Below, in pieces: positions 10,621-54,649 of a stretch of DNA of 64,000 nt; within the stretch, counting starts at the first letter, position 1; every line of letters begins with the position of its first letter. The position numbers were made by a program, and so were the translations under genes. The DNA lies in assembly GCA_013265495.1 (NCBI GenBank), contig MU058065.1, forward strand, positions 9,527,720 to 9,591,719, read 5' to 3'. The stretch comes from Vicugna vicugna. Lineage: Eukaryota. The notes beneath the pieces were generated by a model. The model was not told the DNA's origin. It ran no database searches and was given only the letters and a program-made list of their open reading frames with translations.

Positions 10621-12139
10621 CCAAGTACGCACTGAAGTTTGTGCACTGTGTTTATAGGATATTATGTCAGGCATTTAATTCTAGGAAACAGGCTTATCTG
10701 ATTTCCCAGCTCATCACAGATTAGAAACAGCACGTTAGAAGCAGAGAAAGGGCTGTCAGAGACAGGAAGCCAGACAGAGAAGGAAGAGACATAAAGGCAG
10801 AAATAAGAACTAAGGATGTAACAGTGGGGGATTATTTAATGTTGGAGCAAACAAATCCTCCCCCCTCCATAGCCCTTGTGGGTATCAGTACATCTCAGTG
10901 ACTAATCCATAATGATGGCCACATGTCATCAACGGAAGTTGGCTTTCTGTTTAAGCGTATTCTGTTTTAGGAGGTTGAGTCTGATTAATATTTAAAAATA
11001 TTTCTTCATAAACAAGGAAAAGGTTAAATGATTAAAAGGATAAGCTTATCTTAAAGGCACACAGAGAATGAACTCCCTTGTGGTGCTCAATAAATGGGTG
11101 CTGTACAAATGTGCAAGCAGAAATCTGTTAGAAGTTGGCTTCGTTGAGAGAAAAGGGAGGAGGGGAAATGAAGAGGTATTTTGATTACTACACAGAGAGA
11201 CTCATTTTAGTTTCTGGTTTCCAAGAGAAGACCCAGCAGAGGAGAAGCAAAGCTGGCAGATGAGGATGTGGTACTGCTCTTCTGCAAGTTACCTTATTTT
11301 GGTTCAATGGCTCAGCAAGCCTGGCTAAGCTGTTTCCTCAAAAGCCTGCCAGTAGGAAGTAAATAAGCTATTGGACTCTCCTCCTAGAGAGGGGTTGAGC
11401 ACTTGTAATTAAAGTGTAAATAATTTGCAGGGCCAACAGCTTGTAGACAAAAATAACTGGAAAGATCATAGACACTGAAACTGCACCACACAAAACAGGT
11501 TCTAAGTCTTTGTCTTCACAAACGCTAAGCCCACCAGTTGATTTAGTCACCTTGGTGAGAAATCACCCAAGCCGAGTCACTTGCAAGCATACACAGGAAA
11601 CCAGCTGGTTGCTATATGCTGCTGATGACGCCAGGGACCTGCTGACGCCAGGGACCAAAACTGAGGCAGGCTTGTTCACCAGGTTCCCAGGCCATGAGCA
11701 ACTCAGAACATAAGCGTTACAATGAACTCAGGACTTGCCTGCAATCAGCTGGTTAATCCATTGTCCCACACACCTCCCACTCCTTGGACTGGAAATGCTG
11801 CTGCAGGCTGCCCAGAGTCAGGCTCCGCCTAGGCCCCCAGGGGCCTGCCCTCGTCCTGCTGAGACTCGGGCTGTCTGTACAGGCTCCCGCTCACCAGGGT
11901 GTCACTTTGGTTTTAACATTCCCCTTCATTTGAGGAGGATCCTAAAACTTAAATAATACGCAAATAAAAGCTAAATAAAATGGGAGCAAACCTAAGACCT
12001 TTTCTGTGTAATTACCAACAAATGTGCACGTGTGTGCCTTATACATAGCAGGTACTCATAATTTTTTAAATGAATAATAAATGATTTATTAATCTGTGTA
12101 TGAGGGAAGTATATAAAGAATTAAGGAATTTCATGAATG

Positions 12140-21826: not shown

Positions 21827-21979
21827 TCTACCATATAACATGGAGAACTATATTCAATACCTTGTGATGGCCTATAATGAAAAAGAATATGGAAAGGAAT
21901 ATATATGTATATGGATCACTATGCTGCACACCAGAAATTAACACAACGTTGTAAACTGACTATACTTCAATCAAAAAAA
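21827..21979 (+). mobile_element. 5'-truncated young L1 3' end with 13-bp TSD
   Basis: TSD AAAGCTGAATCTT at 21814-21826 and 21980-21992; ends tgtaaactgactatacttcaatc(A)n. Confidence 0.9.
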
Positions 21980-23879
21980 AAAGCTGAATCTTAAACTTGA
22001 TGATAACCAATCCAATTTACAATACAGGGCCCCCAAAACCTGGAGCAACAGGTAGGAAGTAGGAGTGAGGGTGGGGATTACACAGGGGATTTGGTAGAAA
22101 GTCTTTTTAAGAAGGTGGTAGGTCCCTAATTCCCTACTCCTATTCCTTGCAGGCATTCGGCCTCTCCCTCATTCAGTATTAAACTGAAGGCTTATTCTCA
22201 TGCAAGAACTAAGAGAGGGACTCTGGACTGAGATTACAGAGAAAGGAAGAGGGTTACAACATTGAAGACTGGGGATTAAGTGTAAATTTATAAACTGTGT
22301 GTTAAGACTTTCTCAATCTTCTTCCTCCATTTAGTTTCCAGAACACTGTTAGCCAGGCTTATGTTTCCTTGGCAAAAGGCCGGAAGAATTCTCCGGGTAA
22401 TCTAACCAGCCTAAGAGAAAAGATGTTGATGTGGGTCCAGAACGTTCACTGGCCTGTGTCACATCATCCTGTAGCAAACTCAATGAAGAGCCCCCTTCCC
22501 CAAGAAGAGCATACTCTTCTCGGTGCCCCATTCTTAAAATAAAACTAGACAGCCAGTGATCACCAGATATTTAAGGAATGCCTGTTAATGCAAGCTAGAG
22601 ACCAAAACAAACAGAAGAAAGCAAGGAAACAAACTCTGCCAATAGAAAACTTAGAAAAGGAGCTATCTTGTCTTCAGAGAGATAACAGAAGACACGAAAT
22701 AACAAGACTTATCTATAAAGGGAATAATCAGTAAGCTCAGAAGAAACCTAGATATTAAAAATGTGACATCAGAAATGAGAAATTCAATGTAAGGGCTAAA
22801 AGACAAAGTTAAGGCAATCTCCCAAGAAGTAGAATAAAAAGACCAGCATATGTATAGTTTAAAAAAAAGATGAAATTTAGAAGAGCAGTTATAAAAGGTC
22901 CAACATCTAATAATAAGATTACTAAAAGAACTGATGATAGGAAATCGTAACAAGAAAATTAGTGAAAATACCCTACAATCCCAGTTTCCAGAGTTAAGGG
23001 CCCACCAACTGCCCAGAACAATGGGTAGAAATAGATGCCCACCTGAGAATATCATTATAAACTTTCACTGATATAATCCCAGCACCTATAATAGTGCCTG
23101 GCATATAATAAACACAATAAATGTGTATTGAAGAATAAACAAAAAAACTGAAAGGAGGGACAAGGAGATACAAGTACCAACTTCCAGGAAAAAAGAAAAA
23201 ACAAGTTTAATATAATAAATTAATAATCAGAACTTGTCTGTCTTCTCAATAACAACACCTGAGTCCAGAAGGCAATGGAGAAAATGCTTGCAAAATTCAG
23301 AGGAAAACTATATTTCTGTGCCCTGAAAAAGTATTACATTTAGAATGCGATTATTTTCCAATGTGCAAGGTCTCACAAATTTTACTTCCTTTTCACTATT
23401 TCTCAGGAAGCTCCTGAGCCATGGCCTTCACACACAAAAAGGAACAAACCAAGAAAGAGACAGACATAGGAATCAGGAAACAGGATCCAAGACTAGAGAG
23501 AGGTGAAGAGGATCCAGGTAATAAGGATGAAGTGGCCTCAATTTCCTCAATTTTCCAACTAGAGAGAATGCTGCAGGACATGTGACCCAGATTGGAGCAA
23601 GTCTGACTTCCCCAGAAGATGAAATGGTTAGAGTCCTCAATGCGTTTGAACATACTGGGAGGAGATTATACAATTGAGGGAGAGTTTGAATCTGTATTAA
23701 GTACAAAGAAAACTAAGTAAACAATAAAATAATTATGACAATAATTTCAGAGAAAATAGGTTATATAGGAAGGAAAAAGTAGTCACAGTGGTCTACAGGT
23801 ATTAGCTATGAATAGCATTTTCCTATTTATAATAATATGAATACTGCATATTAGATATAATGAAAACCACAGTAAGACT

Positions 23880-24230
23880 CTCTTAGTTTGTTCAAAAATA
23901 CCCAGACTGGGGTGGCTTATAAACAACAGAAATTTATTTCCCACATTTCTGGAGGCTAGGAAGTCCAAGACAGAGGCACTGGAAGCTTTGGTGTCTGGTG
24001 AGAACCTGCTTCCTGGTTCACAGACGATGCTTCTTACTGCAACCTCATAAGGCAGAAGGGGCAAGGGACCTCTTTGGGGTCTCTTTTATAAGGGCACTAA
24101 TGCCAGTCACGAGGGCTCCACCCTCAAGACCTAATCACTTCCGAAAGGTCTCACTTCCAAATATCATCACACTGGGGATTAGGTATCAACATATGAATTT
24201 TTTGGAGGCATAATCATTCAGACCACAGCA
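23880..24230 (-). mobile_element. MaLR solo LTR (MLT1A-like)
   Basis: tcttagtttg..ggtggcttataaacaacagaaatttattt..acctaatcacttcc..cattcagaccacagca. Confidence 0.85.
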
Positions 24231-28586: not shown

Positions 28587-29231
28587 CCTTCAAGCCATAA
28601 AGCCCATAAGAGAAGATTACAAGGTTCAAGGCTTCACTATCCCTTGTATTTGTTTCTGCGATACTCTTGTTTTCCTAGAGAAAAAAATCTAAAGGCCGGG
28701 GTGGAGTTGTGTACATGACCTTGGATCAAAAACTGCATTGTAATATGGCTGAGTAATATTCCATTGTGTGTATGTACCACATCTTCTTTAAATAGAATGA
28801 AATAATGCCATTTGCAGTAACATGAATGGACCCAAGTATTATCATATTAAGTGAATTAAGTCAGACGGTGAAAGACAAATATATGATATCAATTATGTGT
28901 GGAATCTAAAAATATGATACAAATATTAATTAGAAACCAAAAATAGACTCACAAACATAGAAAACAAGCTATGGTTACCAAAGGGGGAAGGATCGGGGAG
29001 GGATAAATTCTGAGTCTGGCATTAACATATACACATTATTATATACTAAATGTATTAACAAGGACCTACTGTATAGCACAGGGAACTATATTCAATGTCT
29101 TGTAATAACATGTAATGGAAAAGAATCTGAAAACATATGAACTAACTGAATCACTTTGCTGTACACCAGGAACTAACACTGAAAATCAACTACTTCAATA
29201 AAAAAAAACAAAAACAAAAACAACCAAAAAC
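28587..29231 (+). mobile_element. L1 3' insertion with 5' inversion and extra 5' sequence, bounded by 15-bp TSD
   Basis: TSD GATTAGCTGTCATAT at 28572-28586 and 29232-29246; inverted L1 piece 28744-28790; sense L1 from 28791 to an A-rich tail. Confidence 0.88.
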
Positions 29232-36750: not shown

Positions 36751-38859
36751 AGCAAGTCCTGCTTTCTCTTGCTTGATTTGATGGCCACAGTGATATCTGC
36801 CTTCTAACTTCCCCTTCAGAAGTCCCATGCTCCTCCCATGCATTCGACCCACAGGGACAGATATTTACCTAATAGTCCCCTACCTAAGTGTGGAATTTCC
36901 CTGAAGGAGAAGCCAGTCACCTTCTAACTACTGTGCATGGTTTCTCCCACAAGCCTCCGCTTTGTTCCCTTTCATCTACTTACAGACTGTGGTTAAGGGA
37001 ACCATTCCCCTAGTGGTTTGGCTGCTCAGCCAATGGACATGGTTCATCTTCAGGACTTTCCAACCTGCATCTATCACTTCCCTTTTTTACCTTCTGAGCA
37101 CTGCCTCGTTCACTTTCCAGAGAACCAGATAATATACATCTCCTTTCAAATCACGGACACCTTGAACAGTCACTGAACTGGCACTCTGCAAGGTATAACA
37201 TAAAATGATGAAATAGGGAATGTACCTGACTTTTCAGTCCACATGGAAAAAATAGGCAAATAAATAGGCAATTATAAATTAAAGTGCAAAGCTCTATAAT
37301 TGGGGTTAGTACAGTGTGTCATGGGAAGACTCAGAAGAGGCACCCAGCCCAGTGTTTGTACAGGAAGGAGTCTGGTCAACAGTGTTGAGTGCAACAGAGG
37401 GGTGGAAAAGGTCAAGTAAATGCGTATGTTAGCTGCATAAAGCTGTATGCCTGTTAATTAGTAATAAAACACCATTTTAAAACTTCAAATAGAGTATGTA
37501 AAATAAAAAGTGAAAGTTCTTCCTTCCACACATGCTAATCATAATAGCCATAGTGATTTGTTAATGTTTGGCATATGTTCTTCCAGATGTACAGCTATAA
37601 AAATAGATATGCCAATATATATCCATGTAGGGTTTATTTTTCAAAAACCCTATCATAGTATACAAACTGCTAAGCAGACTCCCTTTTTCCACATGGACTT
37701 GTTTCCTTATCATGCATATATATTTACATAACTTAAAAAACAGTTCATAGATTTCCCTACTAATGATACATTAACTTATTTAATAAATCTCTACCTTTTT
37801 GACATTTAGGTTATTTCCCCCTTTTTTTTTTTGCTTCTAACGGTAGTGTTTCAAGGAACATTCTATCCATTGGACTTAGTGACAAGTATTAAGTGAAAAG
37901 GATTACAATCTCAAAATTCTATACCTGCCTGAGATAGATGTATATGAGAAAAAAGTAGACATTTTTGGATATATGAAGTATCAGAAAGTTACTTTCTGGT
38001 TTTCTTTCTGGGGAATTTACTTGAGGAATCACCTAGCAAAACAAAATCAAAACTAAACTATATCTCAGGGAGATTTAAAATGTATAAAAACATGAATGAG
38101 TAATTAATATGGCAAAGTTAAAAGACCAGAATAGAGAATCATGCATGGTTTCTGAATGGGAAACTTAAAATTGTAAAGAAATCGGTATTTCCCACACTAA
38201 TGTTTCAGCTGCTTTCAGTTCCAAACAAACCCTGAAAGGGGCCTGTTTTTGCATGGTGATAAAATTTTCTAGAAAAATAAGTAAGCAAGAATGGCTAAAA
38301 AATGTTTACAAAAAGGGGGCGGGAGGTTGGTATTTGCCTTTTCAGATGCTGAATTATAAACATACAATAGTTAGAGCATGTTAAGTACTGAAAATAGCCA
38401 GATAAATCAGTGACTCAGAAGTGACAACAGAGCTTATAAAATATAAGACGATAATAAGATAATATATTTTAAAGTTACAAAGTGAAGGGTGAGGAATTGT
38501 TTCTTTAATAATTAATGTGGGGAAAAAGGGGTTTTTGATGAATATTTTATTAGTACTTTGTGCCACAGAATATATACAAATAGATTAAAGAGTTAAAAAT
38601 TCAGCCATAAAAAAATTGGAGAAGGTATAGAAGAAAGTTTATACCATCTCTTTATGAGGAAGGATTCCCTCGAGCCAAAAAGCAATGCAAGAAACCATAG
38701 GAAAAGATAATAGACTTGGCAACATAAAAGTATAAAATTTCTGTACTTAAGAAAAAATACAGAAAAAAGGAAAAAAGGAAAACACAAGCCACCAAATGGG
38801 AAAGATTTGTACAACATACGTTCCAAAAACCAGAGTTACTATCACTTGTCAAAACTCTG

Positions 38860-40522
38860 ATACTGGTTAAATCCAATTCTGAGCCTAGTCTGTGCCTAAA
38901 CCTTCACAGATGAATGTGTCCAAAGGGAAATACAAAACCATGTGTTCTGGCCTAACTTCAAATTTACTGTTAATTGCTTTCAAGTGAGACTTTAGCCCTG
39001 TTCTAAAATTGTGATACACTTCCCTAGTTCACTCACTCTCCCATGTTCCCTGATGACTATTTATTACCATCTTCTCACACTCACACTTCAAACTTCCAGC
39101 ACCTCTTCCTCATCCTCACTCAACTAATGATCTTGCTTATAGTAGCGATCAGAAGAGAATGTACACACACTCACACCACCATATCTCACCCAATAGCATC
39201 TCTCCTCCTGTTTCAGAAGAACCATCTATGCTCCCCCCTGAACTATTTAAGGACAAGGATCTGTCTCCAGAAATCCCCTATTTCACCCTCTCTCTACAAA
39301 AACAGTTCCTTCAGGCTACAGTCATGATATTATTTTTCACATCTGAAAAAAAAATCTCTTTTGTCCCTTTTCCCCTCAAATTATGCCATTTCTCACTTTT
39401 GCTTTGCAACAATCCCTCTAGAAGGAGCTGTACACACCTGCCTTAACATTTCCAGTTCCTCAACTTCTGTTCTCTCTTGAACTCAATCCATTGGGCTTTT
39501 ACTCCCACCAACTCTACTGCAGCTGCTCTTGTCAATGTCATCAATGACCTTCACTTTTGCTAAACCCAATGATCAACTCAGTTTTATCTCACGTGATCTA
39601 TCAGCAGCTCTTGACACAAAAATCAGCCCCTTTCCAGAAACATTTGGTTCACCTGGCATCCAGAACGCCACTCTCCTGATTGTGTTCTTCCTGCCTCACT
39701 GTTTTTCATCACTAAAAGGGCCCTCCTGATGGTTCCACAACCTCCAAAAACTGTTCCACCTGTAGTCTTCCCCATTTCAGCAGATGACAACTTCATCTTT
39801 CCAGTCGCTCAGACGGTAAATGTGAAAGCCATATTTAACTCATTTTCTCATACTCTACTTTCAACCAGACTGAACCTGTTGGTTCAGTCTTCAGAACAGA
39901 TCCAGATGCAGATCACACTTTACCATTGTCACTGCTACCACCCTGCTGCAAGGGAATAATACATAACCTCCTGACTGATTTCCCTGCTCCTTTTGTTCTG
40001 CACCAAGTAGCCAGAGTGCTATTTTTCAGTCAGATTAGCATGTAAGGTCTTCACTGAAAACATTCAGACTCCAGTCTGAGGGTAAAAGTCAACGTCCTCA
40101 CATATGGTCCGCCCCCTCCTCGTCCTCATGTCTGCACTCTCTCCTAGTTCACTCACCTTCAGTCATAGCAGCCTGCTTACTATTCCAGGAAAAAGCCAGG
40201 CAGCTTGAGCCTTTTCGATGGCTCCCTCCCCTCCTTTGTATCTTTGGTCAAATATCCCCTTCCTTGCCCACTCTCTGTAGCCACTCCTGCTCAATCCCTT
40301 TCCCTCTTTTGCTTTTTTTTTGCTTCATTTTTCACCTTCTCACTCATCGCCCTCTAATGTGCTATATAATTTTACTGATTTATTTCGTCTATTGCTTGTC
40401 TACTTACGTTAGAATATGAGCTCCACGAAGTCAGAGGTTTTTGTTTGTATCATTTTTCACTGATGCAGTCCCAGTGCTGATACATAGCAGCTGCCCAAAA
40501 AAGATCTGCTGAATAAATAAAT
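38860..40522 (+). mobile_element. Long L2 fragment including a degenerate RT region
   Basis: 39490-39620 is a frameshifted match to the L2 RT segment (STETAL..NDL..DLSAAFDT; here gatctatcagcagctcttgacaca = DLSAALDT); ends gctgaataaataaa. Confidence 0.8.
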
Positions 40523-40581
40523 TAATTATGTTCAAGGAATATACAAAGGGAAAATGGGAGTGTAAATCTCTTCAAACTTTT

Positions 40582-40798
40582 TTTTCAATTGAAGTATAGT
40601 TGATTTACAATGTTGTGTTAGTTTCTGGTCTATAGCATAGTGATTTATTTATATATATATACACATTCTTCTTCATTATAGGTTATTATAAGCTATTGAA
40701 TACAGTTTCCTGTGCTATACAGTAGGAACTTGTTTATTCTGTATATAGAAGTTTGTATCTGCTAATCCCAGACTCCCAATTTATCCCTCCCTACCCCA
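40582..40798 (-). mobile_element. Young L1 3' end with TSD
   Basis: ttttcaattgaagtatagttgatttacaatgttgtgttagtttctgg; TSD CAAACTTTT at 40573-40581 and 40799-40807. Confidence 0.88.
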
Positions 40799-40826
40799 CA
40801 AACTTTTAAAATGTAACTTAACAATA

Positions 40827-41145
40827 CAGTTGTCCCTTGGTATCTGCAGAGGACTGGTGCCAGGACCACCCCCATGGATACCAAAATTTGAGGATACACA
40901 AGTCCCTTATATAAAACGGTGTAGTATTTGTATATAACCTATGCACATCCTCCCATACACTTTAAATCATCTCTAGATTACTTATAATACCTAACACAAT
41001 GTAACCACTATGTAAATAGCTGCCTACGCACAGCAAATTCAAGTTTTGCTTTTTTTGAACTTTCTGAAATTTTTTAAAAAATATTTTCCATCTAAGGTTG
41101 GTTGACTCCCCTGATGCAGAACCTACAGATATGGAAGGCCAAGTG
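40827..41145 (+). mobile_element. MER2 (Tigger-derived MITE)
   Basis: TA-cagttgtcccttggtatctgc..gataccaaaat..caagtcccttatataaaa..gcagaacctacagatatggaaggcc. Confidence 0.88.
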
Positions 41146-41870: not shown

Positions 41871-42230
41871 TGTCTTAGTTCATTGGGGCTGCTATAACAG
41901 AATACCATAAACTGGTGGCTTATAACAACAGATATTGAGAAAAACATGTATCTCATAATTCTGAGGCTGAGAAGGACAAGATCTGGTATCTGGTGAGAGC
42001 CCACAGCTTGGTTCACAGACATCTGTCTTTTTGCTGTGACCTCACATGGTGAAAGGGGTGAAGAGCTCCTTGGGGTCTCTTTTTTAAGGGCATTAAATCC
42101 ATTTATAAGGGCTCCGTCTTCTACACCTAATCACCTCTCAAAGGTCCCACCTCCAAATACTACCACACTGGGGATTAGATTTTAACATACAAATTTTTGA
42201 GGGGACACAAACATTCAGTCTATAGCAACA
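41871..42230 (-). mobile_element. MaLR solo LTR (MLT1A0-like)
   Basis: tgtcttagttcattggggctgctataacagaataccataaactgg..aacattcagtctatagca. Confidence 0.88.
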
Positions 42231-43251: not shown

Positions 43252-43446
43252 CATTTTATTTTATTTTTAAAGATGCTTTTCTTTTTTTAATGGTTTCACG
43301 CAGGACCTCATGCTAAGCATGTGTTCTACCACTGAGCTATTCCCTGGCCTGCTTCTTTTTCCCCTTAACGGAGACACTGGGGATTGAACCCAGGAACTCA
43401 TGCATCCCAAGCATGTGCTCTACCACTGAGCTATACACCCTACCCC
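43252..43446 (-). mobile_element. Dimeric tRNA-derived camelid SINE (Vic-1-like) with 11-bp TSD
   Basis: Minus strand GGGTGTATAGCTCAGTGGTAGAGCACATGCTTGGGATGCATGAGTTCCTGGGTTCAATCCCCAG (A and B boxes); second degenerate monomer 43290-43350; TSD TGTAATAGTTT at 43241-43251 and 43447-43457. Confidence 0.88.
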
Positions 43447-46128: not shown

Positions 46129-46599
46129 AAACAAGCACAGGGAAGAAGAGCAAATGGGGAATGGATGTAATATGAGAGAAGGCTAAGGAAAAATAATGTT
46201 TCCAAAGGAATTTAACTACTTGTCTGTCTACCTAGTATTACAGAGTGAAAAGCACCAAGACTAGGTCAGACAACTTGTGCTGACGCGCTGCTTGCTCACA
46301 AGCTGCTGGGTGACCTTCAGCAAACTTACCTCATCTTTCTGGATCTCAATTCAGATATGCTTAAAATGAGGCAGTAGAGTTGATCCCTAAATTGCCCTAG
46401 GGTCCTAAAACTTCAGCCTTGCAGCGAAGGACCCATCCCTACCTTTTTCTTCTTTCAACCCAGACCAACCTGAAACTTGTTCTTAACGCTACTGCATACT
46501 TTCTGACGGACCCACTGGGTCCTAAAACACAACAACCGTTTCCCATGACCGTGAGACTAAAGGGCAAGGGTGGAGGACTGAACTCTGAGGGGAAAAAAA

Positions 46600-47471
46600 A
46601 AGTGCAAGAAAACCCAGAAGTTGGACAGTGACGCGTACTAACCTGCAGAAGAAAGACTAGGCGAGGCAATGCTGACGCTTTGCAGCGACGGCGGAAGCGG
46701 GAGGAGGGTGGGGCCGAGAGCCGATTGGATGGCTGAGGGGGCGGGGCCTGCGCTGACAGTCTTGGGGAGGAGTGAGGAAGGCTGCGCCGGCGTCTCTTGC
46801 CGGTTTCCGTCCTTTGGCTTCCCCTCCCCAGTGCCTGGAGGGCGGGGCATTGGGTGTGCCGACGCCGTGTGACGTCACAAGGGGCGGGGCGGCTGGGAGG
46901 GGTCCAGCCGGCGCGCGGGCGCGTTCCGCAGTCGCTGTTTGGGACGCTGGGTTCGTGGTTGCTGGTTCTGTGCTCCGGGTTTGCTGTCACAGCCTGTTCC
47001 TTCCTGGAGCCCGGGACAGACAGGGCACGCGCCCGAAGTGCAAGAAAACCCAGAAGTTGGACAGTGACGCGTACTAACCTGCAGAAGAAAGACTAGGCGA
47101 GGCAATGCTGACGCTTTGCAGCGACGGCGGAAGCGGGAGGAGGGTGGGGCCGAGAGCCGATTGGATGGCTGAGGGGGCGGGGCCTGCGCTGACAGTCTTG
47201 GGGAGGAGTGAGGAAGGCTGCGCCGGCGTCTCTTGCCGGTTTCCGTCCTTTGGCTTCCCCTCCCCAGTGCCTGGAGGGCGGGGCATTGGGTGTGCCGACG
47301 CCGTGTGACGTCACAAGGGGCGGGGCGGCTGGGAGGGGTCCAGCCGGCGCGCGGGCGCGTTCCGCAGTCGCTGTTTGGGACGCTGGGTTCGTGGTTGCTG
47401 GTTCTGTGCTCCGGGTTTGCTGTCACAGCCTGTTCCTTCCTGGAGCCCGGGACAGACAGGGCACGCGCCCG
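46600..47471 (+). repeat. Direct tandem duplication, 2 x 436 bp (46600-47035 and 47036-47471)
   Basis: Both units run AAGTGCAAGAAAACCCAGAAG...CAGGGCACGCGCCCG. The ORF track shows identical peptides offset by 436 (46638/47074, 46657/47093, 46669/47105). No mismatch found by eye. Confidence 0.97.
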
Positions 47472-47840
47472 TGTGTGTGTCTGTGTGTGAGCGGGACTCA
47501 AGGGCGGAGGCGTCCTCTCGCTGCATTTTTTTTCTTTTAGCCAAAAAAGGGGGCAGTTCTCACGCTTGCCTTCCTGTCGCCCTATTGGGAGTGGGGTTGG
47601 TGTGCGGAGTTGTTCGTCTTTTTTTCTTTTAAACTTGTGAGCGCTCCCCCCCCCTTTTTTTCGGCTCAGTGCTCTCTGGGCTGGTTTCCTCGGTCCCTGA
47701 CTAACCGCTTTCTGCCCCATCTCTCGCCACCCCAGCCCAAGGTCGCCCATCCGCCCTCGCCCCTGGTCCGGGTGGGTGGGAAGCTTTGTCCCGCTCCCTG
47801 CCCACTCGAGTCTCCGCATCGTAGCCGCACCTGCCTCAAT

Positions 47841-54649
<6,809 letters not shown>

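Follow-up and report, generated by a model that had tools for sequence, protein, structure and literature searches.

An exact 436-bp tandem doubling at the NABP1 promoter in a Vicugna vicugna assembly, probably a false duplication from overlapping contig ends

Introduction

Does this Vicugna vicugna genome carry two successive copies of the NABP1 promoter, or has the assembly written a single promoter twice? The question is raised by one window (the whole stretch of 64,000 nucleotides analyzed here), in which the sequence preceding the NABP1 coding region runs twice, head to tail. An earlier note made from the letters alone had offered a recent duplication and an assembly artefact as the explanations, and these are the right alternatives; both readings belong to known classes, assembly error or simple tandem duplication.

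One error class described in a report on genome assembly consists of overlaps duplicated where contigs meet, with a length of about one read (PMC8081667), and parts of another report describe false duplications of which some were joined gap-free through wrong gap filling (PMC9516828). A gap between the copies is the usual, not the universal, mark of a false duplication in the excerpted text of both reports (PMC9516828; PMC8081667). Sequence missing from older assemblies is, moreover, skewed to GC-rich promoters (PMC9516821).

Results

Two Identical Units Meet at a Blunt Junction

The doubled region comprises the following features:

46600 to 47035, + strand: copy 1 of the 436-bp unit (GC 0.66, 39 CpG), which holds the upstream motifs of the promoter, the probable start site and the initial 105 nt or so of the 5′ leader
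47036 to 47471, + strand: copy 2, the same as copy 1, running on into the remainder of exon 1
47035 to 47036, no strand: blunt junction, with no microhomology, insert or N
46593 to 46601, + strand: A9 run at the left breakpoint
47471 to 47489, + strand: right breakpoint, at a (GT)n tract that is short and interrupted

In a pairwise comparison the two units, which follow each other head to tail, did not differ at any of their 436 bases, and the TRF row for 46600–47471 reports a period of 436, 2.0 copies, 100% matches and 0 indels; the identity and the coordinates given by the earlier note are thus exact. Such identity is far beyond chance. The pair is the sole exact direct repeat of at least 30 nt within the 64-kb window, and at lags of 430 to 442 other than 436 no identity run exceeded 7 nt. 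Identity extends over precisely one unit, and the junction at 47035/47036 is therefore blunt, with 0 bp of microhomology on both sides and 0 inserted bases, as had been written. The whole window contains no N, so none lies at the join. Only the 30 31-mers that cross 47035/47036 are private to the doubled form.

The unit had also been said to begin in an A-run and to end at a (GT)n tract. Its left end does touch the A9 run, but merely the last 2 A of that run lie inside it; the tract does sit at the right end, but it is short, interrupted and absent from the 14 rows of the TRF output (score 50). Low-complexity ends, cited as typical of an artefact, are a weak sign. A hairpin-forming motif closes each unit (47023–47034 and 47459–47470; 4-bp GC stem and 4-nt loop in the RNA fold); it could act as a polymerase or sequencing stop, which fits the artefact and the real reading alike.

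Two further origins were considered and rejected. A VNTR or repeat family is ruled out by the copy number, there being only two copies and no third within the 64-kb window, and unequal crossover between repeats is ruled out by breakpoints that have no flanking repeat or homology.

The other repeats of the window are old interspersed copies or simple repeats with identities of 74–91%. A survey of the window for adjacent, non-simple, two-copy repeats found just three besides the 436-bp pair, all imperfect, with units of 14, 17, and 27 bp and identities of 86–96%: 2361–2414 (27 bp, 96%), 11622–11655 (17 bp, 94%), and 37878–37905 (14 bp, 86%). These are ordinary older events and contrast with the perfect 436-bp copy. 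Dispersed repeat copies of 76–82% identity (23983–24202 with 41978–42198; 21828–21988, 28996–29138, and 40571–40791) are presumably old interspersed elements. On the − strand, ARAGORN called a tRNA-Pro with anticodon GGG at 43369–43440, with a similar partial copy at about 43300–43345; two tRNA-like heads thus follow in succession beside a T-rich tail (about 43300–43440), and we take the call to be a candidate tRNA-derived SINE, which it resembles more than a gene. Strong negative GC skew at 39001–41000 (−0.44, −0.23), set against a mostly positive background, probably reflects a C-rich tract or a repeat on the reverse strand.

The Adjoining Gene Is NABP1

The coding sequence downstream of the doubled unit was modeled as six exons:

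47841 to 47931, + strand: NABP1 coding exon 1, start codon at 47841 (E 2e-6 to SOSS-B1)
48229 to 48367, + strand: exon 2, OB fold (E 2e-22 to SOSS-B1)
50977 to 51048, + strand: exon 3 (E 5.7e-9 to SOSS-B1)
52703 to 52778, + strand: exon 4
53383 to 53449, + strand: exon 5, chosen from splice sites and phase
54480 to 54649, + strand: exon 6, coding part to the TGA stop

The model has canonical AG/GT splice sites and 204 codons, with 0 internal stops. Exons 1–3, with the OB fold, match SOSS complex subunit B1, the paralog, in PDB. The predicted protein has cysteines at 45, 85, 103, and 161; the first three follow the numbering given for hSSB2 (C45, C85, C103) and not that for hSSB1 (C41, C81, C99) in the part of PMC10955726 that treats these residues, which identifies the gene, by its predicted product, as NABP1 (SOSS-B2/hSSB2) rather than NABP2, in agreement with the earlier assignment. 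Its coding part is ordinary, and the doubling in this assembly is confined to the promoter. The gene has reportedly been linked, in one study, to the UV-damage response.

The Unit Covers the 5′ Part of a CpG Island

Three features describe the promoter region:

46551 to 48050, no strand: sole CpG-island-like stretch of the window (1.5 kb doubled, about 1.06 kb without the doubling)
46692 to 46892, + strand: cluster of putative promoter motifs in copy 1 (ETS-like site, two inverted CCAAT, four GC boxes, CRE palindrome), recurring 436 bp downstream
46927 to 46932, + strand: Inr-like BBCABW match with its A at 46930, a candidate start site (47366 in copy 2) about 55 nt past the CRE

The 436-bp unit forms the 5′ part of this island, upstream of the NABP1 coding sequence; in single-copy form the island makes up 1.7% of the window. 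Within copy 1, CGGAAG lies at 46692, inverted CCAAT at 46724 and 46849, and GGGCGG at 46739, 46840, 46882, and 46887, and a CRE core at 46870 sits within a 12-bp palindrome (46868–46879). These matches to CGGAAG, CCAAT, GGGCGG, and CRE we take to be promoter motifs, that is, putative sites. The earlier inventory was right about CGGAAG and the CRE palindrome and short on the others, having counted one inverted CCAAT instead of two and three GC boxes instead of four. It also went too far in placing the whole promoter cassette within the unit, since the island spans 46551–48050 and two GC boxes (47502, 47751) and a CCAAT (47584) lie beyond the unit on its downstream side.

That the unit holds the likely transcription start region is a reasonable suggestion of the earlier note, in that an Inr-like match does occur at 46930, but this is one of seven matches in the unit to the consensus used (BBCABW, which we take as the Inr consensus), and a start near 46930, or 47366 in copy 2, is a candidate.

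Transcripts Expected from a Doubled Allele

If the doubling were real, the two copies would not yield equivalent transcripts. From the candidate start site, a start in copy 2 would leave the leader normal, at about 475 nt and free of upstream ATGs, and one in copy 1 would give a leader of about 910 nt containing the following feature:

47105 to 47308, + strand: upstream ATGs at 47105 and 47165, opening frames of 67 and 47 codons that end at a common stop and are not in frame with the main ATG; in the leader only for copy-1 starts of a doubled allele

The added leader showed no special structure, folding no better than shuffles (z = 0.34). With two out-of-frame upstream ATGs and no special fold, RNA from the extra start site would therefore likely be poorly translated. 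Any gain in output would then come from the factor sites added upstream of copy 2. The earlier statement that the arrangement doubles transcription-factor sites and start sites is too simple for the same reason: because transcripts of the upstream copy would carry the two upstream ATGs, doubling the promoter would not simply double output.

Searches of Reads, Metagenomes, and Literature

At least 14 of the 24 public sequencing runs listed contain 0.92–0.94 of 273 words sampled from the region, a share that is blind to the junction, which contributes 30 of 2,665 distinct 31-mers, or about three sampled words, equal to the effect of one SNP. When 46150–47080, which takes in the left flank, copy 1, and the junction, was compared with contigs of four of these 14 runs, from four studies, 0 contigs were placed in all four; a filter can drop contigs, so that absence is not implied and the outcome weighs on neither side. 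A short motif from each unit end had 0 exact matches in the one metagenome collection scanned. Among the literature matches listed, camelid structural variation included, titles and abstract openings held no report of a NABP1 promoter duplication, and passages of PMC3439969, PMC5368935, and PMC5689209 gave no usable rate. A bacterial promoter/terminator scan returned 0 sites and is inapplicable to a mammal.

Discussion

Identity Does Not Discriminate between the Readings

The earlier note took zero divergence as a mark of artefact, a view that does not hold. Two haplotypes of one animal would be identical over 436 bp in 17–80% of cases (assumed diversity of 0.4–0.05%), so that identity is expected in that share of two-haplotype overlaps, and a recent real event is equally allowed: 0 differences bound divergence at 0.69%, or about 0.7–3.4 million years at assumed rates. 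Zero differences are compatible with both readings and are therefore set aside as a discriminator.

A False Duplication Is the Favored Reading

The doubling is probably a false tandem (“homotype”) duplication made from untrimmed overlapping contig ends. Coverage would have thinned in the GC-rich promoter island of NABP1 and led to a contig break; one contig piece would end at 47035, and the next would start 436 bp earlier at that locus; the two would then have been butted together during scaffolding, gap closing, or patching, with the overlap untrimmed and no N between them. The animal itself would have a single promoter copy. What has been observed is that the copy is exact, the join blunt, the gene intact, and the setting a CpG island; the contig break and the untrimmed join are proposed. 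The earlier note had rated an artefact at least as likely as a duplication, and an artefact is indeed favored, but on grounds that differ in part: the blunt junction and the CpG-island site bear the weight.

As to the junction, random joins drawn in the region (20,000 draws) had 0 bp of microhomology in 57% and 0–1 bp in 84%. Blunt breakpoints make up 9.2% of 30,449 unclassified human deletions (PMC12350158) and 11–35% of human and fly CNVs in Table 1 of PMC4056370. The blunt junction thus favors an artefact by a likelihood ratio of roughly 2–6, a soft figure because the source rates come chiefly from deletions. The location points the same way by analogy with other assemblies, in which breaks cluster at such sites: of the located gaps of the dog assembly CanFam3.1, 2,151 of 12,806 (16.8%) overlap a start site, as given in an excerpt of PMC7980453. 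In an odds table built for a short-read or gap-filled assembly at assumed rates, the probability of an artefact ranged from 0.28 to 1.0 and exceeded 0.5 in 16 of 18 settings; all inputs but the dog figure are assumed, and the table gives the direction of the odds rather than a measurement. If the assembly had been built from accurate long reads, a real duplication would instead be the likelier reading.

Several observations count against an artefact. The copies are joined with no N gap, a sign that the earlier note had left out of its weighing; local base quality is good, as judged from the six NABP1 exons, which read as one intact 204-codon frame; 436 bp far exceeds a k-mer overlap; and real tandem duplications are abundant.

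A Possible Real Duplication

The first two of these observations, continuous sequence and an intact NABP1 coding frame, speak for a real recent duplication, which, all its forms taken together, is possible and somewhat doubtful. A private or low-frequency tandem duplication with little or no effect is unlikely as an account of the locus. On this unlikely account it would have arisen in the open promoter, when either a staggered break was filled in and closed by blunt non-homologous end joining or re-replication was followed by end joining. Among insertions, tandem duplications form a major class, with 15,295 sites in 1,019 humans (PMC12350158), and near-blunt ones made by end joining, with overhangs of about 50 nt, are described in part of PMC8355091; end joining of this kind is, however, known at about a tenth of the 436 bp required here. 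Blunt breakpoints are also a minority among natural ones, the site offers no flanking repeat or homology for unequal crossover, and a duplication would land in the promoter island with a chance of about 1–2% by position alone (a figure that is partly assumption). The divergence bound leaves room for such an event. Its transcripts from the upstream copy, with the leader of about 910 nt and the ATGs at 47105 and 47165, would add little protein.

An allele that alters NABP1 output is improbable. The upstream copy would supply the downstream start with a further set of CRE, GC-box, CCAAT, and ETS sites and, with equally slight probability, would add a second start site that produces a long-leader, uORF-damped isoform. 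In favor of such an allele, the unit contains every main motif as well as the candidate start site. A 133-bp promoter tandem duplication accompanies raised expression of GhLMI1-D1b in cotton (10.1101/062612), but that duplication lies about 800 bp upstream and leaves the start site uncopied. An effect on output would first require a real junction, and transcription begun in the upstream copy would pass through the downstream promoter, perhaps interfering with it instead of adding to it. Equally improbable is that a real allele in the lineage has the NABP1 core promoter and start site doubled, so that two clusters of start sites would be separated by 436 bp; the downstream cluster would have twice the factor sites, and the upstream one would give long-leader transcripts damped by two uORFs.

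Comparison with Known Systems

Under the favored reading, a false duplication from contig ends, the locus appears to work like the false homotype duplications of which excerpts of Rhie et al. (2021; PMC8081667) and Ko et al. (2022; PMC9516828) give accounts: one locus stands twice in tandem with 0 haplotype-specific differences in 436 bases, and 436 bp could be the size of a read or library fragment. Unlike those cases, the NABP1 copies have no N gap between them, and the class is defined in practice by halved or very low read depth and by pair discordance; the locus is likened to the class and not filed as a member of it, since the usual gap is absent.

Polymorphic simple tandem duplications, as treated in sections of Schloissnig et al. 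(2025; PMC12350158), are alike in being two-copy, forward at their own site, in unique sequence, and within the size range of structural variants. The NABP1 junction differs in being known from the assembly alone and in being blunt, and the unit includes a probable start site within a CpG island. The extra copy does lie forward at its own insertion point, as in germline tandem duplications; of the junction microhomology, insert, or flanking homology that are common though optional among these, the locus has none.

The GhLMI1-D1b duplication of okra-leaf cotton, the closest worked case among the reports cited, is likewise a head-to-tail promoter copy judged recent in the available text of the report (10.1101/062612). 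It was genotyped across lines and tied to expression and phenotype, unlike the NABP1 unit, known here from the assembly alone; it is a third of that unit's size and sits some 800 bp upstream of the start site.

What the Doubling Would Mean

As an artefact, the doubling would matter only for the error it puts into the reference: sequencing reads, along with CAGE, ATAC, and methylation data, would have ambiguous placements over the start of NABP1, and each resequenced animal would seem to have a 436-bp deletion at the NABP1 promoter. If it is real, it would be one more case of a very common, ordinary variant class, and its interest would rise only if it segregates and changes NABP1 levels. If it is both real and functional, the copied start site would permit a direct test of whether tandem promoters are additive or interfering, and a true doubling would let the effect of a doubled start site in a CpG-island promoter be studied as a natural experiment.
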